From Desulfurobacterium pacificum (GTDB lineage Bacteria > Aquificota > Aquificia > Desulfurobacteriales > Desulfurobacteriaceae): a DNA stretch of 32,000 nt. The position numbers and the translations under genes are program-made. The notes below the pieces were generated by a model, which saw nothing but the letters and a program-made list of their open reading frames with translations, had not been told where the DNA came from and did no database searches. The stretch's first letter is position 1. Each line of letters starts with the position of its first letter. Location: positions 676,945 to 708,944 of the forward strand of contig NZ_FXUB01000001.1 of the NCBI RefSeq assembly GCF_900182835.1. The letters are read 5' to 3'. Positions 1-10,257 of this stretch are shown here, piece by piece.

Positions 1-33
1 TTCATTAAATTCTATTCTCAACCTGAAACACAT
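1..33 (-). CDS. 5' end of an ORF running off the left edge (MCFRLRIEFNE...); probable next gene of the Argonaute/AAA+ operon
   Basis: ATG at complement 31-33, AAGGTG Shine-Dalgarno 5 nt upstream, 13 nt after the stop of the AAA+ ORF, open to window edge. Not in the supplied ORF track because it is too short within the window. Confidence 0.45.
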   Translation of the reverse strand, partial: MCFRLRIEFNE

Positions 34-46
34 TCAAGCACCTTAA

Positions 47-1693
47 TCAAGAATTTTCACTGTCAGAATCTTCTATCCATTTAAAAAATTTTTCCCATTC
101 TTCTTCGCTTAAATTGATGTCTAAATCATATTCATCAGCAGAGCTTTCTTTAGAATTCTTTTCTGGCTCTTCTAGAATTTTAATTTTTATTTTCCCTAAA
201 ATCTCTTTTCCTAACGCATTCTTTAAAAGCTTTAAATTCCGACGATTCAGACTCAGAGAAGATATAGTCCCATCTTCCACCAGATATTCAAGCACGCTTT
301 TTCCGGTAGAATCTGTTAATAAAAGGTAGTCTATCAGTTTGTCCTGCAGTATAAAGTTGGCAGGATTTCCTGACCGGATTTTTTTAAGCTCCTTCCTGAG
401 AAACAGGACTCTTGCCTTAACCATATTATCTTTAGAAACTCTACTTTTACGACGTATTTCTTTTATTTTTTCCTTTTTTTCCTGACTTAATTCTGGAAGC
501 ATAGGTATCTGAAAATTAAAGTCTGCTTCAAGCGCCCATCTCACGAAAGAAGCATTCACAACCACAGGTAAAACACTGCCGTGCATAAGATCCCATTCAA
601 CCGCCTCTCTAATTTTGGATAAAAGGCTTTCCAGCCTCCTTACACCTAAGTATTCTTTTTCGTTTTCTTTTTCACATATCTTCGCTAACTCTATTTTTGC
701 GTCGTTTTCCACAACAACTACGTCAGGAATGGAATTAGTTGAATCTCCTGAAGGCAGGTATTCCTGCATTTTAGAACTGATGATAGCCAGATAGTCTTCG
801 TATCCCAGCTTTCTGACATTTATGCGGACGTTAAGCCTTCCTTTCAGTTCCGGTGCAAACTCTTCCGGTGAAGTTTCAGTGAAAGCTCCAGCTAAAATGA
901 AAGTTATGTGAGAAGTGTCGATAGAATCAGAAGACTTCTCTGCCCTTACCCAACCACCTTCGATAAGCTCTAAAAGGTGATACTGGAGGCTGCGGTAGAA
1001 ACCCTCTTCATCGTCTCCCCTTTCTTTTATTAAAAGCTTATCTGCTTCATCTATAAAGATTAAACCAAAGGGACGTTTTTGAAAGCTCATCAAGACAGGG
1101 AAATCTTTATCCTTTTTCTCTTCAAAACCTGGAAAAGACAGTATTTCACCGGCTATTTCTTCAATCAAAGAAGCAGTTTCTAAAGCATCTTCTGAACCAT
1201 TAAATCTGTCATACATGAACTCTAAAACCCGTGTGTGTCTGAGAAAGACTCGGGCAGCTGCGTATTCGAGAGCAGCCTTTAATTTCTCAGGTGAGCTTTC
1301 AGATTCGCAAAAAGCAGCAAGAGCTTGCTTGTATAAATAATAGTTTTTTGCCAGATCTTTAATTCCGTGATAACTATTCTTAACCGCAGACGCAAATTCT
1401 GCAGTAACTATTTCGTGCGGATCTTTTCCCTTATAGCCTGTCAAAGTATACTCAGTTATGGATACTTTAGTAAAAGGAACCTTGAGTTTCTGCGATAGGG
1501 CTCTTGCAATCTCCGTTTTACCGTTTCCGGTAGGACCTACAATCAGGCAGTTGTTCTTCTTCCTGGAACGTCCTTCAAGGTAAGCTTCCAGATTTTCGCA
1601 GATAGCATTTGACAGCTTAAAAAGAGCTTCAAGCTGCCCTACTACTTTTTCGCTGAGTTCACGAGCCAAGTAGTAGCTTGCAAATTCCAGCAT
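47..1693 (-). CDS. AAA+ ATPase, HslU/ClpX-like unfoldase family
   Basis: 548 aa. Walker A GPTGNGKT (aa 53-60), N-terminal VVGQ...A motif, TGYKGKDP pore-loop-like segment, Walker B LIFIDEADKL, and a downstream GRLNVRI segment compatible with an arginine-finger region. Confidence 0.85.
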   Translation of the reverse strand: MLEFASYYLARELSEKVVGQLEALFKLSNAICENLEAYLEGRSRKKNNCLIVGPTGNGKTEIARALSQKLKVPFTKVSITEYTLTGYKGKDPHEIVTAEFASAVKNSYHGIKDLAKNYYLYKQALAAFCESESSPEKLKAALEYAAARVFLRHTRVLEFMYDRFNGSEDALETASLIEEIAGEILSFPGFEEKKDKDFPVLMSFQKRPFGLIFIDEADKLLIKERGDDEEGFYRSLQYHLLELIEGGWVRAEKSSDSIDTSHITFILAGAFTETSPEEFAPELKGRLNVRINVRKLGYEDYLAIISSKMQEYLPSGDSTNSIPDVVVVENDAKIELAKICEKENEKEYLGVRRLESLLSKIREAVEWDLMHGSVLPVVVNASFVRWALEADFNFQIPMLPELSQEKKEKIKEIRRKSRVSKDNMVKARVLFLRKELKKIRSGNPANFILQDKLIDYLLLTDSTGKSVLEYLVEDGTISSLSLNRRNLKLLKNALGKEILGKIKIKILEEPEKNSKESSADEYDLDINLSEEEWEKFFKWIEDSDSENS

Positions 1694-1703
1694 GACAAAC
1701 TCC

Positions 1704-1838
1704 TTACAATAAGGTTAATTGATTGTTGTTCTTCCCAGATACTTTTTTATTCAAAACATCAGCTACGGTAACTTCAGAAACTGATAGATTCGGCAGGAGC
1801 TGCTGGACTTCACGGCTTTTCTCGGCTGGAGTTTTCAC
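1704..1838 (-). CDS. Possible unannotated small protein (44 aa) or frameshifted C-terminus of the upstream RHH-like ORF
   Basis: GTG-initiated frame VKTPAEKSREVQQLLPNLSVSEVTVADVLNKKVSGKNNNQLTLL*, filling the gap between the RHH-like ORF and the AAA+ ORF. No strong Shine-Dalgarno at the GTG. Confidence 0.3.
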   Translation of the reverse strand: MKTPAEKSREVQQLLPNLSVSEVTVADVLNKKVSGKNNNQLTLL

Positions 1839-2025
1839 TTCTGGTGGAAGGCGGTAAACGGTTGTCCCTTTCTAAAATTTTTCTGATAACTTCATTTATG
1901 TGCTGGTTAATAGACCTATATCCGTTATCTATCAACCACTTTTTGTATTCCTTGAGTATTTCCCTTCTTACCCTGATGGTGGTCTGAACGAATTTTTTTT
2001 CCTTCTTTCTTTTATCGCTTTTCAT
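1810..2025 (-). CDS. Small basic protein, ribbon-helix-helix/CopG-like putative DNA-binding protein
   Basis: VQTTIRVRREILKEYKKWLIDNGYRSINQHINEVIRKILERD has an RHH-like pattern (beta strand followed by two helices). The track starts at 2046; the ATG at 2025 (MKSDKRKK...) has an AAGGTG Shine-Dalgarno and is more likely. Confidence 0.55.
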   Translation of the reverse strand: MKSDKRKKEKKFVQTTIRVRREILKEYKKWLIDNGYRSINQHINEVIRKILERDNRLPPSTRSENSSREKP

Positions 2026-2174
2026 ATCATGACACCTTGACGTCATTTCTTTCTATTTATGAAGATAATCCCCATTCCCCGACAGTCAAGGGGGAAAGAA
2101 AAAGTAAAAATCAGACCAGTAGGAGGAAGAAAGATTCCAGAAATCCCTCTTTCAGAATTAGGAACGTGGATTTC

Positions 2175-2474
2175 TCAGATATCAAAAAATTTCTTCCAGC
2201 CGAATATTTCTAAACCTGCTGGTTCGCCATCCTCGTCAAAATCAACTATAAAACCGCCGCTGAAATATTCGCCCTCGCATCTTCCTTTATCGGAAATCGT
2301 GACCCAGAGGATATCGTCTTTAGGAAAATACTTTGATTTTTCTTTGAGTTTCTCTATGGTAAGAGATATCCATTTTCCTTTTTCAGTGTCATAGAAAGAT
2401 ACATAAAGAATGTCGCTACTCTTATCATATTTAAGTTTTCCTTCTTCAGGCTTAAAAATGTCTATTTCTTCCAT
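2175..2474 (-). CDS. DUF2283-like small protein
   Basis: 99 aa. LKYDKSSDILYVSFYD near the N-terminus and FIVDFDEDGEPAGLEIFGWKKF at the C-terminus match the general DUF2283 pattern. Starts 9 nt after the Argonaute stop. Confidence 0.65.
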   Translation of the reverse strand: MEEIDIFKPEEGKLKYDKSSDILYVSFYDTEKGKWISLTIEKLKEKSKYFPKDDILWVTISDKGRCEGEYFSGGFIVDFDEDGEPAGLEIFGWKKFFDI

Positions 2475-2483
2475 CAGTTCCTC

Positions 2484-4547
2484 TCATAGAAAATAAAGCG
2501 CTCCCATTTCAAGAAGGTATTGGTCAACTATCCAGTTTCTTCTTAAAGCGTTCACGTAAAGGTGAGAATAGTGAATTGGTGCGGGCAACCTCAGTTTGTT
2601 TTCATCATTGAATATGGTAGAAAAGTTAAGCTTGGTTAGTAAAAAGAGTGTTCTTATGAGTTCAGAGGTAATTGAATTAGGAGAGTATTGCCCGTAACTT
2701 ATTTCCCAGAAACTGTCTATCAGAATGCTTCTGGCACCTTTGCAAGAGTGAGGTAAGAGAACGGCCAAATCCTTTCTTAAGACAACGCCTTTCTTTCCTT
2801 CGTCGGATAATATGCGGAAAGAATGCCCTTTCTTAATATTGGCGGTAAACACTTTTAATTTTCTATCTTTTACAACATAAGATTCAGATAAAGAACCTAC
2901 TTCATCTTTATATAGATTCCCGTCTTTTAGCAGTAAAACTCTGCTGCCGTAAACGTTTATTTTCTCCACAACTATTTCAAGTATCCAGTTAAGGTTATCT
3001 ATTTTCTCTCCTCCTGTATCGATAGAAACAGGATAAAGACCTTTTATAGTGCCATCAGATAGAAATACAGTTATCCCTCCTGCACGAGTTCTACGGTTAA
3101 AAGGATCGTTACCGCAATCAACGCCTATGATAAGGTCGTAATTGAACTTTTCTGACAGAGAGAATGGTCTTATACCGAGCTTGGCGTATATGTTATAGAC
3201 TAAAGTTCTAGAAATATTTAAAGGATTAGAGTTTCTTATCCATTTATCATAAATGACAAACTGGCTTATTATGTTTTTGGCAAACAACCTTCTTTTAAGA
3301 GAATCGTATTTTTCTTTGTTCATTTCAGGAATAAGGCAAAGAGCAGAAGAAAATTTGTATTTACTAATTTCTTCCTGAATTTTTTTAGGTAAAGAAAAAT
3401 CGTCGAAATCAACTATAAACACAAGTTTGCCTTTAGCAGGACGTATCGTCTTAAATAGTTCTTTGTAACCTTCTATTCTGTTTAGTTTTAAAGCTTTCTT
3501 ATCTTTAAGTTGACTACGTAAAAACGCATTTACGCTGCTTTCATTAAATCTTTTGTCTACCAAGACGAAAAATGGCATTCCTCCCTGTTCTTCTATGTAT
3601 TGTGGAATAGAAAACGGAGGGTAATTCAATACTTCTTTAAGTGAAAAAACCTTTTTCTCTGTTCCATCTATGGTTTTAACTACATAAACTGGCTTTGAAA
3701 AAAGTTTTCCATCTATGCTACAGGGAGTATCAGCTAAAAACGGAATCTTCCTGACAGTTTCTTTCAGGATTTCTTTTCTCTCGAAATTTGAAATTACGAG
3801 TTTATTAGGGGATAAAGTTTTAGTTCGGTAGCAAGTGTCAGGATGAAATGGATAAACCCTGCCTTTTCTACCGAATTTAGCTTTCAAAATGGGAAATTCT
3901 TTCGGGAAATCTGTTACGCCGTATTTTTTCTCTAGAAGTTTTAAAATGCTTTCTCTCTCTTCTTCAGAAGGACTTTTAATCACTTCTTCTACGTTTATAA
4001 GGTCGCCCTTACCAGGACTATTTCCAGGAGGATAATAGAGCAATCTTTCTCCAACTATATCTTCTAAGGTAATCTCATTCCGTTTAAGCATCTGGTAAAT
4101 ACTTCTGTACCATTTAACCCTGTGCTTTAGGTCAAAGAATAAATAGAATTTTTCTCTGATTTTTCTTACGGTGAAGTTTCCGATAGTGAGTATTACAGAA
4201 TAGGAAGAATGAATTTCTTTCTTTTTAGGAAGGTTTTCTTTAAGCAGTTTTTTTATTCCTTTTTCGTTCAAAATTTTTATAAGTATCTTCTCTTGAATGA
4301 AGTCTTGAAGTTTTTGAAATGGTATTTCCTCTAACAATTCTGCATCGCTGCACGGTAATGATTTTCTGTGAGATACCACTTCAACTTCTGCATCTTCCAC
4401 AGGAGTAATAGGGACACCTATAGAGCGAACTTCTCCGTTTCTCTCATCTAAATCTTCTGATTGAGGAATAAGACGAAATCTATAAACAACATCAGGAATA
4501 ATTGACGGTACTATTTCAAAACCATTGAGTTCCACTTTGGTTTCCAT
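2484..4547 (-). CDS. ago: Long prokaryotic Argonaute (PAZ-MID-PIWI), Aquifex-like, predicted catalytically active
   Basis: 687 aa. PIWI motifs: YDLIIGVDCG (D477), SIDTGGEKID (E514), RVLLLKDGNLYKDEV (D542), LPAPIHYSHLYVNALRR (H662). MID motif: Y414..K418, S-Q429, AK456LG. C-terminus ends in a hydrophobic LYFL. Preceded by a GGGGG Shine-Dalgarno. Confidence 0.95.
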   Translation of the reverse strand: METKVELNGFEIVPSIIPDVVYRFRLIPQSEDLDERNGEVRSIGVPITPVEDAEVEVVSHRKSLPCSDAELLEEIPFQKLQDFIQEKILIKILNEKGIKKLLKENLPKKKEIHSSYSVILTIGNFTVRKIREKFYLFFDLKHRVKWYRSIYQMLKRNEITLEDIVGERLLYYPPGNSPGKGDLINVEEVIKSPSEEERESILKLLEKKYGVTDFPKEFPILKAKFGRKGRVYPFHPDTCYRTKTLSPNKLVISNFERKEILKETVRKIPFLADTPCSIDGKLFSKPVYVVKTIDGTEKKVFSLKEVLNYPPFSIPQYIEEQGGMPFFVLVDKRFNESSVNAFLRSQLKDKKALKLNRIEGYKELFKTIRPAKGKLVFIVDFDDFSLPKKIQEEISKYKFSSALCLIPEMNKEKYDSLKRRLFAKNIISQFVIYDKWIRNSNPLNISRTLVYNIYAKLGIRPFSLSEKFNYDLIIGVDCGNDPFNRRTRAGGITVFLSDGTIKGLYPVSIDTGGEKIDNLNWILEIVVEKINVYGSRVLLLKDGNLYKDEVGSLSESYVVKDRKLKVFTANIKKGHSFRILSDEGKKGVVLRKDLAVLLPHSCKGARSILIDSFWEISYGQYSPNSITSELIRTLFLLTKLNFSTIFNDENKLRLPAPIHYSHLYVNALRRNWIVDQYLLEMGALYFL

Positions 4548-4986
4548 TACTTTTACCCCCTCTTCTTGTTTTCTTTGAGAATTTTAAAATTTTTCTTAAA
4601 AAGAATAAAACAAGTTCCTCTCACGCCTGAATCAACTTTTTCAAAAAGATCAATACCTCTCTTAGACATATTAAGCCATCAGCTCAGATAGGAAAAGCTG
4701 GCTTGTGGTAATCAACCGTGTGGAACGCACTGCACTACACACAACTTGAGTTTTAAACAGGCTTTTTGATTCACCCGTAAACGAGGGGATACGGAAGCTA
4801 TTGATAACATTATTGAGAGAAATTTATGATAGTTGTTCCAACCCCTAAACCGCTGAAAAGAGACTGAGAAATGTCAAAGAATTGTATTATAAAAGCTATG
4901 GAAAAAGAGTAACCGTCAAAAAGTTGCACACCTTAAAATAGAAAACAGGAAGGGAAAGTAATACTCAATTTTTGTGGGAGAAGGAA

Positions 4987-5568
4987 ATGAACACTTCGCT
5001 TACGCCGATGACAATTGTAATCGGAACTTGTGCTGTTGCGATTATGGTCCTATTTATCACCTATCTTGCTATTTTTGTATTGAACTATGATGTTAATAGG
5101 AAGGAAAAAGAAATCATCCTTTCTGAGATTACTCCTGAAACGTTAAAGGAAGCTGGGAAAAAAGCAGAAAAGATACGTATTCCTGCCAATGCGCTTACCC
5201 CAGAGCAGAGAAGAAGATTAAGGGAAATGGGGGCAGTAACAGCTTCAACGGATGATTTCCTTCTAAAAGCAGGTATGCTGTATCTACTGTATGAAACTCT
5301 TTTTGACAATGATGACGCTAAAACAAACGAAATCCTGTCTAATCAAGAAGAAACATACACATCTGATATAAATTCAAGCACTGACGATACCGATGCAAAT
5401 GAGCAGACAACAGATATTTTTCAAAGTCAAGAAGAAAACATAGAGCAATCTAACGACTCTTTGGATTACGTTCCCTCTTTAGACGATAATAATGCTGCAA
5501 ATGATTGGGATAGTAGAAGTGAAAGTAGTTGGGATTATGCTGATGACAGTTGGGATAGTGATTGGTAG
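4987..5568 (+). CDS. Hypothetical single-pass membrane protein with a highly acidic, Trp/Asp-rich C-terminal tail
   Basis: ATG at 4987 with GGGAGAAGG Shine-Dalgarno. N-terminal hydrophobic helix TIVIGTCAVAIMVLFITYLAIFVL, tail NDWDSRSESSWDYADDSWDSDW. Confidence 0.7.
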   Translation: MNTSLTPMTIVIGTCAVAIMVLFITYLAIFVLNYDVNRKEKEIILSEITPETLKEAGKKAEKIRIPANALTPEQRRRLREMGAVTASTDDFLLKAGMLYLLYETLFDNDDAKTNEILSNQEETYTSDINSSTDDTDANEQTTDIFQSQEENIEQSNDSLDYVPSLDDNNAANDWDSRSESSWDYADDSWDSDW

Positions 5569-5708
5569 TGAAGTTCAAGAGGTTTAAACTTGCATATAGT
5601 CTAAACAATAAAAAAACGCTTTTAGAAACATGGATTGTCAGATGTTTTATAGAGAAAAAAATAAAACCAGAACAGGCTGCTATATAGGGAAAACTTTGTA
5701 TACCGGGC

Positions 5709-5804
5709 TCACCCTACTTTTTTCTTCCCTAAATAGTCAATTACTTCAAAACCGATAAGTGAAGTAAGTATCAGCGCTATAAAAATCCACATTCCTACTA
5801 CCAT
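5709..5804 (-). CDS. Single-TM microprotein (31 aa): MVVGMWIFIALILTSLIGFEVIDYLGKKKVG
   Basis: Read manually on the minus strand. Follows the 36-aa microprotein almost directly and shares the I-G-F-E-[VI]-I pattern with it. Confidence 0.45.
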   Translation of the reverse strand: MVVGMWIFIALILTSLIGFEVIDYLGKKKVG

Positions 5805-5806
5805 TG

Positions 5807-5917
5807 TTACTTCGTTTTCTCCTTCTTCTCTAATTCTTTTTCATCTATGTAGTAGATTATTTCAAAGCCAATAGTCATTAAAATAAACATTATTCCGAGA
5901 ATTATTGCTGCAATCAC
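5807..5917 (-). CDS. Single-TM microprotein (36 aa): (M)IAAIILGIMFILMTIGFEIIYYIDEKELEKKEKTK
   Basis: GTG start with a strong AAAGGAGGG Shine-Dalgarno. Hydrophobic helix followed by a charged tail. Confidence 0.55.
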   Translation of the reverse strand: MIAAIILGIMFILMTIGFEIIYYIDEKELEKKEKTK

Positions 5918-5927
5918 TTTCCCTCCT

Positions 5928-6027
5928 TTAAAGGCTTCTCAGTTCTTTCTTGCTCTGATAATTTACCGTCTCAAATATAATAGTTATTGACGCCAGCATT
6001 ATTCCAATGAATCATTGCAATAACCAA
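5928..6027 (-). pseudogene. Frameshifted remnant of a third copy of the same microprotein family
   Basis: AGAGG Shine-Dalgarno then TTG GTT ATT GCA ATG ATT (LVIAMI). After a frameshift, IGIMLASITIIFETVNYQSKKELRSL* aligns with VIAAIILGIMFILMTIGFEIIYYIDEKEL of the neighbouring intact copy. Confidence 0.45.
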
Positions 6028-6094
6028 CTTTTCCTCTGAAAATTGCGAATTCTTCTCCAACCTTATTTTAAAATTACTATCGGAGGTAAGCAGC

Positions 6095-6541
6095 ATGGCA
6101 TTACTGAAAATACACACCATAGAGGCAAAGATTTACAGTCGCAAGAGTCCAGCGTTCTTAATCGGCAGAGTAAGTTATGACACGAAAACGCCAGAAGACT
6201 ATGAAATCAAGCCAGTTGCTAAAGGTAAAACCAAAATTCTCATTGGGACTAAAGGGATATACATACTCAACGACAAGATAACTGAAGAAATCATTAGTAG
6301 AGTTTGGGAAAACTACCTAAAAGAGAGGAAAGGAAACAGAAACAGGAAAGAGGGAATAGTAGAACACCCCGTAGAAGTAATTGAAGATGAGGTAAGAAAC
6401 TACTTCTGCGAAAAAGGAATTGTTCCTATGCCCGAAACAGGCTGGATTAACTTCTCCTATGAAATCCCAGACTTTGAAAAGATGAGGAGAAGTATTCTGG
6501 AAATTGTTAAGGAAGTAAAAAGAAAGGTAGTAAAAGAGTAA
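6095..6541 (+). CDS. Hypothetical protein (148 aa)
   Basis: Strong CGGAGG Shine-Dalgarno and complex sequence with a soluble-protein-like composition (MALLKIHTIEAKIYSRKSPAFLIGRVSYDTKTPEDYEIKP...). Confidence 0.7.
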   Translation: MALLKIHTIEAKIYSRKSPAFLIGRVSYDTKTPEDYEIKPVAKGKTKILIGTKGIYILNDKITEEIISRVWENYLKERKGNRNRKEGIVEHPVEVIEDEVRNYFCEKGIVPMPETGWINFSYEIPDFEKMRRSILEIVKEVKRKVVKE

Positions 6542-6576
6542 GATTAAAACTTACATGCAAGTTACAAATCGCAATT

Positions 6577-6723
6577 ATGAGAAAGGACAAAATGAACACG
6601 AAAGAAGTCCTTAAAACAAAATCTATTTATAACAGAGAAGACTTATTGAAAATTAGGGTTTTCCTATCAGCCATCTTGAATGTTGCAAAATGCAAAGTCC
6701 CGAAAGATTCCGTAAAAGCTTAA
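6577..6723 (+). CDS. Possible small protein (48 aa): MRKDKMNTKEVLKTKSIYNREDLLKIRVFLSAILNVAKCKVPKDSVKA
   Basis: Open frame ending 47 nt before the 77-aa ORF, same strand. No strong Shine-Dalgarno. Confidence 0.3.
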   Translation: MRKDKMNTKEVLKTKSIYNREDLLKIRVFLSAILNVAKCKVPKDSVKA

Positions 6724-6770
6724 CTACGATTTCCTGAAGAGAATATCACTTTCAAAAGCAAGGAGGAAGC

Positions 6771-7004
6771 ATGCCAATAGCGGTTGAAGATAGAGAATTG
6801 ATAGAAAAGGCTTGCGAAGTTCTTGTAAAGGAACTCGGACTTATAGGATTTGTGAGGTTTGTAAAGCTTATGGGCTGGGCAAAAAGAAACTGGACAGAAG
6901 AGAGAAAAGAAGTTCTTAAAGAACTGGAAGAAAAGCTGATGAAAATGACTACCGAGGAAGTCGTCGAATACTTTGCTGAGGGAAGAAAAGTAAGACCGGG
7001 ATAG
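6771..7004 (+). CDS. Hypothetical small helical charged protein (77 aa)
   Basis: AAGGAGGAAGC Shine-Dalgarno immediately upstream. MPIAVEDRELIEKACEVLVKELGLIGFVRFVKLMGWAKRN... Confidence 0.65.
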   Translation: MPIAVEDRELIEKACEVLVKELGLIGFVRFVKLMGWAKRNWTEERKEVLKELEEKLMKMTTEEVVEYFAEGRKVRPG

Positions 7005-7138
7005 GTTGTTGTGTAGGTTCATTCAAAAAGAGAAGAATATTGCTTAAGACAGGATTGCTAGGTAGGATTACAAACCTGTTCTTTTTGGGTAAAGAAGCAT
7101 TTACGGGGTAAAAATGCCGAAAATAAACGAATATGTAA

Positions 7139-7240
7139 CTACCTATCAACCTTCTTAGGAGTGTAGGTAGCACCCCAAAAGATAATCCCTATTAGGATGA
7201 AGATTCCGAGAAAAATCAAGAGCCCCGCTATCGTATCCAT
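7139..7240 (-). CDS. Single-TM microprotein (33 aa): MDTIAGLLIFLGIFILIGIIFWGATYTPKKVDR
   Basis: Read manually. GAGGG upstream of the ATG, one hydrophobic helix and a short basic tail. Confidence 0.5.
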   Translation of the reverse strand: MDTIAGLLIFLGIFILIGIIFWGATYTPKKVDR

Positions 7241-7446
7241 CCTCTAATTCCCTCTTTAAAGAGATGTTACAGAAAAGAATAATTTCTTTCAACATTTCTA
7301 AAAACTGCTCTAGCGGAACAAAACAACTCTCGGGTTCAGGAAAACTTTTCCGTCAACGTTTAAAACATATTTTTATCTTATGCAAGAATTTCATCACCCT
7401 TGCTGCATATCAATAGAATTCAGACTCAGGAGGGCTCACTAAACCA

Positions 7447-10257
7447 ATGAAAGACAAAATCATCATTAAAGGTGCAAGGCAGCACAACTTAAAAAACATA
7501 GACCTTGAAATACCAAAAAATAAGTTAGTAGTCATTACGGGAGTTTCCGGTTCTGGAAAATCCTCCCTCGCCTTCGACACCCTCTACGCCGAAGGGCAGC
7601 GCCGCTACGTAGAAAGCCTTTCAGCCTACGCAAGACAGTTCTTGGAACTGATGGAAAAACCGGACGTTGACCTCATAGAAGGACTTTCCCCTGCCATTTC
7701 AATAGAACAGAAAACCGTTTCAAAAAATCCCCGCTCCACCGTCGGCACCACCACAGAAATCCACGATTACCTGAGAGTCCTCTTTGCAAGGGCAGGAACG
7801 CCCTACTGCCCCAACTGCAACGTCCCCATCCAGCCCCAAACGGTGCAGGAAATCGTTGACAGAATTCTTGAAAAAGAAGGCAAAAGAGTAATACTGCTTT
7901 CCCCTATCGTCAGAGAAAGAAAAGGCGAACACAAAGACCTTTTAGAAAAAATCGCAAGGCAGGGCTTTAGAAGGGTAAGAATAGACGGCAAAGAATACAG
8001 AATAGAAGAAGCCCTTGAACTGAAGTTAGAGAAGAAAGTTAAACACACGATAGAAGTTATCGTTGACAGGATAAAAGTTTCCGCAAAAAACAAAAACAGA
8101 ATAGCAGACTCGGTAGAAATAGCCGTAAAACTCTCAGACGGCTTGGTTATAGTTCAGGACTACGAAACAAAAGAGGAAGAAACCTTTTCCACCAAAGGCG
8201 CTTGCCCGATATGCGGATTTTCCTTCAAGGAAATCTCACCCCGCCTATTCTCTTTCAACAGTCCTTTAGGCGCCTGTCCCGAATGCAGCGGCTTAGGCTT
8301 TAAGTTAGCAATAGACCCAGACCTCTTAATAGACTGGGACAAGCCGATAATAGAAGCCGTAGAACTTTCCCAAAAGGCAAAGTTTGAATACCTGCAGGAC
8401 ATGATAGAAACAGCCTGCGAATACTTGGGAATTTCCTCTCTCACGCCGGCAGGAGAAATAAACAAAGACGACCTGAACTTTATCCTCTACTCACCGAAAC
8501 AGCCGATAAGAATTTTTAACACCGTTCCTTTTAGCAGAGGTAACTACAAACCATACTACTTTGAAGGAATAATCAAACACCTTGAAAGGCGCTACTTTGA
8601 ATCGGAATCGGACTACGTAAAAGAGCTGATAGAACCCTACTTGAGAGAAGTCACCTGCAAAGCCTGCGGTGGCAAAAGGCTTAACAGAGAAGCGCTGTCG
8701 GTAAAAATAGCAGATAAAAACATAGCTGAAGTTGAAGCTTTAACGGTAGAAAAGTGCTACGAGTTCTTTGAAAACCTTCAGTTGGAAGGAAAGAAAAAGC
8801 TAATAGCAGAACGAGTTTTAAAGGAAATCAGAAACAGGTTAAAGTTCCTCATAGACGTCGGACTTACCTACCTGACTCTTGACAGGCGAACGGCAACCCT
8901 TTCCGGCGGAGAATCTCAAAGGATAAGGCTTGCAACACAAATAGGCTCAAGGCTGACGGGCGTTCTCTACGTTTTAGACGAACCGAGCATAGGCTTACAC
9001 CAGAGGGACAACAGAAAACTCATTGAAACCCTGAAAGGACTGAGAGATTTAGGAAACACCGTAATAGTGGTAGAGCACGACACCGAAACGATAGAAAGCG
9101 CAGACCACGTAATAGACATGGGACCGGGCGCAGGAATTCACGGCGGCGAAGTCGTTGCCTGCGGAACGCCGGAAGAGATAAAGAAAAACGAAAATTCCCT
9201 AACCGGAAAGTACTTGAGCGGAAAACTGAAAATAGAAGTACCGAAAGAAAGAAGGAAGCCGGGTGACAAGTGGCTTAAAATCATCGGCGCTTCAGAGCAC
9301 AACCTAAAAAACGTTGACGTTGAAATACCTTTAGGCTTGTTCGTCTGCGTCACAGGCGTTTCCGGCTCTGGAAAATCCACCCTCATCAACGAAATCCTCT
9401 ACAAAGCATTAGCCCGCGAAATTTACAACTCAAAAGTAATCCCCGGAAAACACGAAAGAATAGAAGGTTTAGAACACGTTGACAAAGTAGTAAGGGTTGA
9501 CCAGTCTCCCATAGGCAGAACGCCCCGCTCAAACCCTGCCACCTACGTTGACGTCTTTACCCCCATAAGAGAGCTTTTCGCCGCAACGCCGGAAGCAAGA
9601 GCAAGGGGCTACAAAAAGGGAAGGTTCTCCTTTAACGTTCCCGGCGGAAGGTGCGAAGCCTGCAAAGGCGACGGGCTGATAAAGGTTGAAATGCACTTTC
9701 TACCCGACGTTTACGTAACCTGCGACGTGTGCGGAGGAAAGCGCTATAACAGAGAAACTTTAGAAATTACCTACAAAGGCAAAAACATCTACGAAGTCCT
9801 TGAAATGACCGTTGAAGAAGCGATGGAGTTTTTCAAAAACCACCCGCGGATATTCAACAAGCTGAAAACCCTCTACGACGTGGGACTCGGCTACATCAAG
9901 TTGGGGCAACCGGCAACGACCCTTTCAGGCGGCGAAGCTCAAAGAATAAAGTTAGCAAGAGAACTCTCAAAGAAAGGAACGGGAAAAACCGTTTACATAT
10001 TGGACGAACCAACGACAGGACTTCACATCCATGACATTAAAAAGCTCATAGATGTCCTTCAAAGATTAGTTGATAAGGGTAACACCGTAATAGTTATAGA
10101 ACACAACCTTGACTTTGTAAAGTGCGCCGACTGGATAATAGACTTAGGACCAGAAGGCGGAGAAAGAGGTGGACAGGTAGTAGCGACAGGAACGCCAGAA
10201 GACATAGCAAAAACAAACACATGGACAGGAAAGTTCTTAAAAGAAGTCCTTTCTTAA
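7447..10257 (+). CDS. uvrA: Excinuclease ABC subunit A
   Basis: 936 aa. Two ABC ATPase modules ([35 protein letters not shown]; [10 protein letters not shown]), CxxC zinc motifs, two LSGGE(S/A)QR signatures. Confidence 0.98.

Follow-up and report, generated by a model that had tools for sequence, protein, structure and literature searches.

A long-A Argonaute of the MjAgo/PfAgo clade in Desulfurobacterium pacificum: a candidate thermophilic DNA-guided DNA endonuclease

Whether the thermophilic hot-vent bacterium Desulfurobacterium pacificum encodes a working Argonaute, and what such a protein would cut, is the question raised by a gene located in a 32,000-nucleotide stretch of its genome (contig NZ_FXUB01000001.1, positions 676,945 to 708,944, RefSeq assembly GCF_900182835.1); this whole stretch is called the window, and all positions refer to it unless a contig is named. 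An initial annotation, made from the sequence, had described the gene product as a long prokaryotic Argonaute (pAgo) with a complete catalytic tetrad. Based on the family, structural and genomic analyses reported here, the protein is probably (with a probability of about 0.6) a catalytically competent long-A pAgo that was horizontally acquired and acts in defence as a DNA endonuclease guided by 5'-phosphorylated DNA.

The Argonaute gene and its family

A single open reading frame (ORF) is located at positions 2484-4547, as the initial annotation had it; it lies on the minus strand, which had not been specified, starts with ATG and encodes a protein of 687 amino acid residues followed by a stop codon. 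Its identification as a complete Argonaute coding sequence is based on the ORF itself, the Pfam Piwi match, the matches to PDB sequences, the AlphaFold2 model and the Foldseek comparison. A strong Shine-Dalgarno-like sequence, AGAGGGGG, was recognized by its match to the consensus at positions 4556-4563 (minus strand), 8 nt upstream of the ATG. An exact-sequence look-up identified the protein as WP_283400182.1 / SMP09086.1 of D. pacificum (Aquificota, family Desulfurobacteriaceae), for which the existing NCBI annotation reads "Piwi domain-containing protein" or "Argonaute homolog". The UvrA, DUF2283 and AAA proteins encoded on either side are likewise identical to those of D. pacificum. The thermophilic origin that had been supposed from the sequence agrees with the host, whose species description carries the word "thermophilic" in its title (L'Haridon et al. 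2006). The ratio of nonsynonymous to synonymous substitution rates (dN/dS) of the gene was 0.136 relative to a homolog of 85% identity on the metagenomic contig L004, and 0.113 relative to a homolog of 75% identity on contig L001. The gene is thus under clear purifying selection, which speaks against a decaying gene.

When the protein was compared with the PF02171 (Piwi) profile, as had been proposed, the match scored 59.5 bits against a curated cut-off of 28.9 (E = 4e-16); 42 of the 45 sequences in the family alignment also matched this profile. The best match of the protein among the PADLOC models was "PprPIWI" (E = 5e-46), a term that was not found in the literature searched. A word-indexed homology search gave just 1-3 close matches, probably because the protein is rich in lysine and glutamate, and 1.84 billion cluster representatives were therefore searched exhaustively with a profile. 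This recovered 63 relatives at E <= 1e-3, so few among so many representatives that the clade is to be regarded as small. The relatives found by a genome scan with a profile of 16 sequences were vent thermophiles, namely bacteria of the Aquificales, Hydrogenothermaceae and Thermotogota together with Methanocaldococcus, Archaeoglobaceae, Acidilobaceae and Woesearchaeota. In the subclade sharing at least 39% identity with the D. pacificum protein, no member bears a name beyond automatic annotation. The protein was not found in the available part of the supplement to the 2018 pAgo catalogue (PMC6299218), and the literature searched held no link between Desulfurobacterium and Argonaute.

The catalytic tetrad of the PIWI domain

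The PIWI (RNase H-like) domain was assigned to residues ~462-687 (positions 2487-3164, minus strand) from the alignment with PfAgo and MjAgo, and ends in GALYFL. Eight residues had been named in the initial annotation as forming the catalytic site and the guide-binding pocket, and in the translation all of them (Y414, K418, Q429, K456, D477, E514, D542 and H662) stand where they had been placed; the accompanying motifs GVDCG (from residue 475), TGGEKID (from 511), LLLKDGNLYKDEV (from 538) and PAPIHYSHLYVNAL (from 655) were also found. The four catalytic residues are encoded on the minus strand at positions 3117-3119 (D477), 3006-3008 (E514, the glutamate finger), 2922-2924 (D542) and 2562-2564 (H662, the fourth position of the tetrad).

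The Argonaute tetrad has been described as DEDX, with X being His or Asp (Swarts et al. 2015) or D, H or K (Ryazansky et al. 2018, PMC6299218), and the PfAgo mutants D558A, E596A, D628A and H745A are inactive (Swarts et al. 2015). In residue-by-residue HMMER alignments, D477, E514, D542 and H662 were aligned with exactly these PfAgo residues (D558, E596, D628 and H745), and with D504, E541, D570 and D688 of MjAgo. The corresponding columns of the 45-sequence alignment are strongly conserved (D in 44, E in 44 and D in 45 sequences), and the fourth column is occupied by Asp in 32 sequences, His in 12 and Asn in one. Judged from the reference alignments and the conserved columns, the tetrad is intact, correctly placed and of the canonical DEDX form, as had been read from the sequence, and guide-dependent nuclease activity is predicted from homology.

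The histidine at the end of the tetrad had been singled out in the initial annotation as a feature resembling eukaryotic AGO2, a distinction that proved to be commonplace. Relatives at 85% and 75% identity carry His at this position, while the next one, at 49% identity, carries Asp; TtdAgo has His at the position aligned with H662, and His occurs in at least four separate branches of a crude neighbor-joining (NJ) tree. A special status of the residue was accordingly rejected on the grounds of PfAgo, TtdAgo, the 12 family members and the scattered NJ branches. His is an ordinary variant of the fourth position, given that the DEDH tetrad of PfAgo is established by mutagenesis, that TtdAgo and 12 of the 45 members share it, and that the relative at 49% identity has Asp instead.

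A minor observation concerns positions 2550-2564 (minus strand), which encode H662 and N666, the counterparts of H745 and N749 in PfAgo. In the family alignment, His was accompanied by Asn at position +4 in 9 of 12 sequences and Asp by Lys at +4 in 23 of 32 (Fisher's exact p = 2e-6, a value uncorrected for phylogeny). The covariation suggests charge compensation one helical turn away from the catalytic residue.

The guide-binding domains

The MID domain (residues ~313-461, positions 3165-3611, minus strand) was recognized by its 5'-phosphate pocket motif and aligned with those of MjAgo and PfAgo. In pAgos, the MID motif Y-K-Q-T-N-K binds the guide 5'-phosphate through a divalent cation (Ryazansky et al. 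2018, PMC6299218). All six residues are present in the D. pacificum protein, namely Y414 (3306-3308), K418 (3294-3296), Q429 (3261-3263), T448 (3204-3206), N452 (3192-3194) and K456 (3180-3182), all on the minus strand, and none of the substitutions of the MID-OH and MID* types occurs in the motif. The 5'-phosphate-type pocket read by the initial annotation is upheld by this complete motif, which places the protein among the YK-type pAgos, and by the family columns (Y in 40, K in 41, Q in 44 and K in 44 of the 45 sequences). The C-terminal carboxylate of pAgos helps to hold the metal of the MID pocket, and the end of the protein, GALYFL, fits the conserved C-terminus of the family, G-x-LYF[ILV].

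The N domain with linker L1 (residues ~1-140, positions 4128-4547, minus strand) was delimited approximately from the MjAgo alignment, the domain table of PMC6299218 and the secondary structure of the model, and linker L2 (residues ~248-312, positions 3612-3806, minus strand), also approximately, from the MjAgo alignment. The segment between them, residues ~141-247 (positions 3807-4127, minus strand), was assigned as a divergent PAZ domain by hhalign, and its local model confidence is ~80-95. The PAZ comparison that had been proposed succeeded in part: the Pfam PAZ models did not match the protein directly, whereas a profile-profile comparison did. The PAZ segment of MjAgo-like family members matches PF22333 (Ago_PAZ_arc) with E values of 1e-42 to 4e-9, and residues 140-262 of the profile of the D. 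pacificum subclade were aligned by hhalign with these MjAgo-like segments over 113 columns (probability 97.9%, E = 3e-13). In view of this match and the confident modelling of the segment, the PAZ domain expected of a long-A pAgo is judged to be present but divergent.

Predicted structure and nearest characterised relatives

A model was obtained with AlphaFold2 from the 45-sequence alignment, with a predicted local distance difference test (pLDDT) of 92.5 and a predicted template modelling score (pTM) of 0.90; it replaced a model from a 4-sequence alignment (pLDDT 46). The structural check proposed in the initial annotation could thus be carried out, and the confident model could be superposed from end to end on MjAgo, TtdAgo and PfAgo. 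When the PDB was searched with Foldseek, MjAgo ranked first (E = 2e-51, query-normalised TM-score (TMq) 0.72-0.73), and the ternary complexes with guide DNA and target DNA gave a TMq of 0.79 for TtdAgo and 0.77 for PfAgo. The top seven matches were all MjAgo, TtdAgo or PfAgo, with 724-805 aligned columns corresponding to the full length. The protein therefore qualifies as the long pAgo it had been taken for, and in both the model and the sequence it displays the full N-L1-PAZ-L2-MID-PIWI architecture by which long-A pAgos are defined (Ryazansky et al. 2018).

The same three enzymes were found by phmmer in a search of all PDB sequences, where the best match was TtdAgo (8JSI/8WD8, E = 2.5e-42), followed by MjAgo (5G5S/5G5T, E = 7e-42, one continuous alignment covering residues 69-687) and PfAgo (1U04/8JPX, E = 2e-37). 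All top five matches belonged to these proteins, and the next were animal PIWI proteins at E ~1e-4. The matches to the Piwi profile, to the PDB sequences and in the Foldseek search are all much stronger than chance would give. As judged from sequence and modelled fold, the closest relatives are therefore the archaeal thermophile Argonautes MjAgo, TtdAgo and PfAgo, with identities to characterised enzymes of ~21-30%, and the protein is a member of the MjAgo/PfAgo clade, the only tree built being a crude NJ tree.

MjAgo, from Methanocaldococcus jannaschii, is the best fold match and the sole solved homolog with a nearly full-length continuous sequence alignment. It has 713 residues against the 687 of the D. 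pacificum protein, shares ~22-30% identity with it, carries D-E-D and Y-K-Q-K at identical positions, and ends in LYFI where the D. pacificum protein ends in LYFL. In the 2018 survey (PMC6299218) it is classed as long-A with a normal PAZ and a YK-type MID. The two differ in the fourth tetrad residue (D688 with Lys at +4, as opposed to H662 with N666), in the PAZ domain, which is shorter in the D. pacificum protein and unmatched by Pfam Ago_PAZ_arc, and in the host, which is archaeal for MjAgo and bacterial (Aquificota) for the protein studied here. MjAgo uses DNA guides and leaves RNA uncut.

PfAgo (from Pyrococcus furiosus; 1U04, 8JPX), a thermophile enzyme of the same clade, has a DEDH tetrad like that of the D. 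pacificum protein and Asn at +4 in both cases (HKFANAI and HLYVNAL, respectively), and was adopted as the functional model. It is longer (770 residues), contains extra insertions, carries Phe, not Tyr, as the first MID residue and shares ~22% identity over the model. It is a DNA-guided DNA endonuclease that requires Mn2+ or Co2+, works at ~95 C and lowers plasmid transformation in vivo (Swarts et al. 2015). TtdAgo, from Thermococcus thioreducens, gave both the lowest phmmer E value and the highest TMq, and also has DEDH (HYAH), but differs in its length (750 residues), in Phe at the first MID position, in Arg at +4 after the catalytic His, where N666 is found here, and in overall sequence (~21% identity). 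It acts as an endonuclease on DNA, with DNA guides bearing 5'-P or 5'-OH ends, over the range 30-95 C and with either Mn2+ or Mg2+.

The initial annotation had instead pointed to Aquifex aeolicus Ago (1YVU/2F8S) as a closely comparable protein. Both have the long-A architecture and come from thermophilic members of the Aquificota, and A. aeolicus Ago is likewise listed as long-A, with a normal PAZ and a YK MID, in PMC6299218. However, it was absent from the phmmer matches to PDB sequences at E <= 1, and in the Foldseek search it ranked 31st, behind eukaryotic PIWI/AGO structures, with 17% identity (E = 5e-29, TMq 0.58-0.62). A. aeolicus Ago was therefore discarded as the closest relative; the three archaeal enzymes are nearer.

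Proposed mode of action

By homology with the characterised enzymes, the guide 5'-phosphate would be anchored in the MID pocket by Y414, K418, Q429, T448, N452 and K456, together with a divalent cation bound to the C-terminal carboxylate, and the guide 3' end would be held by the PAZ domain. The guide is expected to be a short single strand, most likely of DNA. Once guide and target had paired, the glutamate finger E514 would join D477, D542 and H662 by plugging into the PIWI site, and cleavage of the target would follow opposite guide positions 10-11 with Mn2+ or Mg2+, presumably at ~60-80 C. In the cell, the protein would most likely act on its own in defence, cutting plasmid or viral DNA that invades. 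We infer the guide and target chemistry, the metal, the temperature optimum and the defence role from these relatives, and consider DNA-guided DNA cleavage itself to be fairly probable by the same analogy.

Gene neighborhood and horizontal transfer

No APAZ, TIR, SIR2 or Cas genes were found among the neighbors of the Argonaute gene, and it therefore belongs to none of the known multi-gene pAgo systems (SPARTA/SPARSA or the CRISPR-associated MID-OH type). Three other genes follow it on the minus strand. A gene encoding a 99-residue DUF2283 (YuzE-like) protein (positions 2175-2474; Pfam DUF2283, E = 1e-12) starts 9 nt after the Argonaute stop codon and is probably co-transcribed with it. It is followed by a 78-residue ORF (positions 1810-2046) with a weak resemblance to Arc/ribbon-helix-helix (RHH) proteins (phrog_582, Arc-like repressor, E = 0.002), whose product may be a local regulator, and by a gene for a non-canonical HslU-like AAA+ ATPase of 548 residues (positions 47-1693). 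The ATPase was recognized by Pfam AAA_2 and AAA and by TIGR00390, the hslU equivalog, to which it scored 122 bits, far under the cut-off of 362; it matches HslU of the PDB in two separate stretches and carries a C-terminal extension of ~150 residues. No HslV was seen beside it.

The order Ago-DUF2283-RHH-ATPase is kept in L004, where the DUF2283 gene (3653-3952) occupies the same position and is 89% identical (dN/dS = 0.14), the RHH-like ORF is 73% identical and the ATPase lies at 4379-6046. On contig L024, a homologous atypical HslU-like ATPase (3394-4842; 30% identity, E = 7e-41) lies directly upstream of an Argonaute of 40% identity in divergent orientation, so that such an ATPase accompanies the Argonaute in 2 of ~5 lineages of the subclade. 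The Argonaute of 75% identity (L001/L006, 8001-10064), from a metagenome-assembled genome (MAG) of the Desulfurobacteriaceae, stands alone elsewhere in the chromosome, flanked by gyrB and an SBP_bac_5 gene. The group at 48% identity and contig L023 lack the DUF2283 gene, the RHH ORF and the ATPase within their contigs, and neither a DUF2283 gene nor an RHH ORF was found beside the Argonaute in ~45 other related loci. In the available part of the tables supplementing the 2018 pAgo survey, among them the operon table, DUF2283 and HslU/ClpX are likewise missing. The ATPase may be an accessory factor of the Argonaute, and the DUF2283 and RHH-like genes are at most candidate members of an Argonaute system.

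Beside more distant relatives, a BrxL-like Lon/ATPase (L007:2474-3517, E = 1e-68), the HsdM subunit of a type I restriction-modification system (L010:199-1791, E = 6e-96) and an N6-methylase with a PLD-HerA fusion (L024:7078-10790, in a general defence island) were found, which is a typical defence-island context. The GC content is 34-36% over the Argonaute gene and its upstream region (~3000-6000), compared with ~40-43% in the rest of the window. Because of this low GC content, the different site in the MAG, the defence neighbors and the mixed archaeal and bacterial distribution among vent organisms, the locus looks horizontally acquired and the gene looks like a mobile, mostly stand-alone defence gene. 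Signs of island borders were searched for around the gene, where no tRNA, Rfam family, integrase or terminator was found and flanking repeats occurred only at chance level. Plasmid collections gave no match to the Argonaute or the ATPase, and viral collections gave no Argonaute and only generic ClpX-like ATPases, none with an Argonaute nearby.

Alternative explanations

Several points weigh against the reading of the protein as a DNA-guided DNA endonuclease. Whether DNA or RNA is preferred cannot be read from the sequence, since characterised enzymes share no more than 21-30% identity with the protein and preferences vary between related pAgos: TtAgo loaded with siDNA cuts RNA, and PfAgo does not (Swarts et al. 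2015). The PAZ domain has diverged too far to be matched by the Pfam models, the geometry of the active site was judged from alignments, and no biochemical characterisation was found in the literature for the protein or for its subclade. The protein could then be an active slicer of the same architecture with a different substrate rule, either DNA-guided with a preference for RNA or promiscuous, accepting DNA and RNA guides and tolerating 5'-OH ends. The acceptance of both 5'-P and 5'-OH guides by TtdAgo and the diverse substrate targeting described for MfAgo would fit such an enzyme, but the three nearest solved and characterised homologs are primarily DNA-guided DNA cutters, and the canonical 5'-phosphate motif is intact and free of MID-OH substitutions. 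A departure from the substrate rule of the homologs is thus considered rather unlikely.

Other explanations concern the role of the protein rather than its substrate. The Argonaute might belong to a multi-gene module with DUF2283, the RHH-like regulator and the HslU-like ATPase, the last of which could, for instance, be an effector or serve to remodel or unload complexes of the Argonaute with nucleic acid. The 9-nt spacing to the DUF2283 gene, the order of four genes, each under purifying selection, that is kept in L004, the homologous ATPase in L024, and the missing HslV and low equivalog score of the ATPase are consistent with this. The solitary Argonaute of 75% identity, the 48% group, L023 and the ~45 loci lacking these genes argue for the opposite, as does the absence of such partners from the survey tables; moreover, adjacency in L024 may be incidental because that locus is a general defence island, and long-A pAgos with an intact catalytic site, PfAgo among them, work in vitro without partners. 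Such a module is therefore held to be improbable. The same low standing applies to its more specific form, in which the subclade would have recruited a dedicated non-proteolytic HslU-like unfoldase, DUF2283 and the RHH regulator as accessory factors; this would explain the atypical HslU-like genes beside Argonautes of 40% identity in different orientations and, if true, would amount to a long-pAgo defence module of a new type, its AAA+ motor serving to load, recycle or activate the Argonaute. Thermus thermophilus Ago has reportedly been proposed to help resolve replication products, and an active nuclease serving chromosome maintenance of this kind, or DNA repair together with the nearby uvrA, would agree with the chromosomal location of the gene (a 716-kb contig) and with uvrA at a distance of 2.9 kb. 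However, uvrA lies on the opposite strand, with three unrelated small ORFs between it and the Argonaute gene; and the different location in a related genome, the patchy distribution, the lower GC content and the defence neighbors in relatives fit a mobile defence gene better than a housekeeping gene, which makes a maintenance role very improbable.

Significance

The candidate defence endonuclease is an uncharacterised addition to a well-known family and is already annotated as an Argonaute in public databases. It introduces no new biological principle, given that its architecture, its tetrad including the histidine and its 5'-phosphate pocket are textbook features of active long-A pAgos. The only lead toward novelty is that an atypical HslU-like ATPase, together with DUF2283, recurs beside the Argonaute, and the chance that these form a genuine functional module is small. 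The value of the protein is chiefly that it may provide a thermostable programmable nuclease and that it exemplifies transfer between domains, documenting the exchange of Argonautes from archaea to bacteria among vent thermophiles. Thermophilic DNA-guided pAgos (PfAgo, TtAgo and TtdAgo) serve as programmable nucleases in diagnostics and DNA assembly, and characterised relatives in the Desulfurobacteriaceae grow best at ~70-75 C; a compact bacterial member of the archaeal MjAgo/PfAgo clade, with 687 residues, could close the gap in working temperature that separates mesophilic from hyperthermophilic enzymes.

Other features of the locus and of related loci

No intrinsic terminators were found in positions 1-7500 of the window, compared with 5.3 +/- 2.3 in shuffled sequences, and their scarcity is possibly a trait of the organism rather than of the locus. 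The synonymous divergence (dS) between L004 and the window was uneven over adjacent genes (DUF2283, 0.37; Argonaute, 0.57; ATPase, 1.66), a hint of recombination, or of an exchange of cassettes, in the locus. A DUF2283 gene of 45% identity was also observed at L053:1974-2183, ~1.9 kb from a C-terminal Argonaute fragment and on the opposite strand.

In the lineages at 48% and 40% identity, a large protein of 691-774 residues, which has no Pfam match and adjoins a resolvase, is encoded just upstream of the Argonaute (L019:1481-3556, L019:3519-4241 and L024:741-3065, and also in L005, L018 and L020-L022); neither the window nor L004 contains it. The protein is 44% identical between the lineages (E = 8e-123) and in L024 is fused with a 240-residue protein. 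A DxD...KSGRFR pattern noticed by eye is reminiscent of primase-polymerase replication proteins, and if the protein is of that kind, it would mean a plasmid-like carrier.

Divergently from the Argonaute gene, an ORF of 198 residues (positions 4972-5568, plus strand) encodes a protein whose N-terminus includes a hydrophobic segment and whose C-terminus is very acidic and contains repeats. It matches no family, is 72% identical in L004, and contains a direct repeat (5489-5514 and 5534-5559) with WDS/WDY-like motifs.

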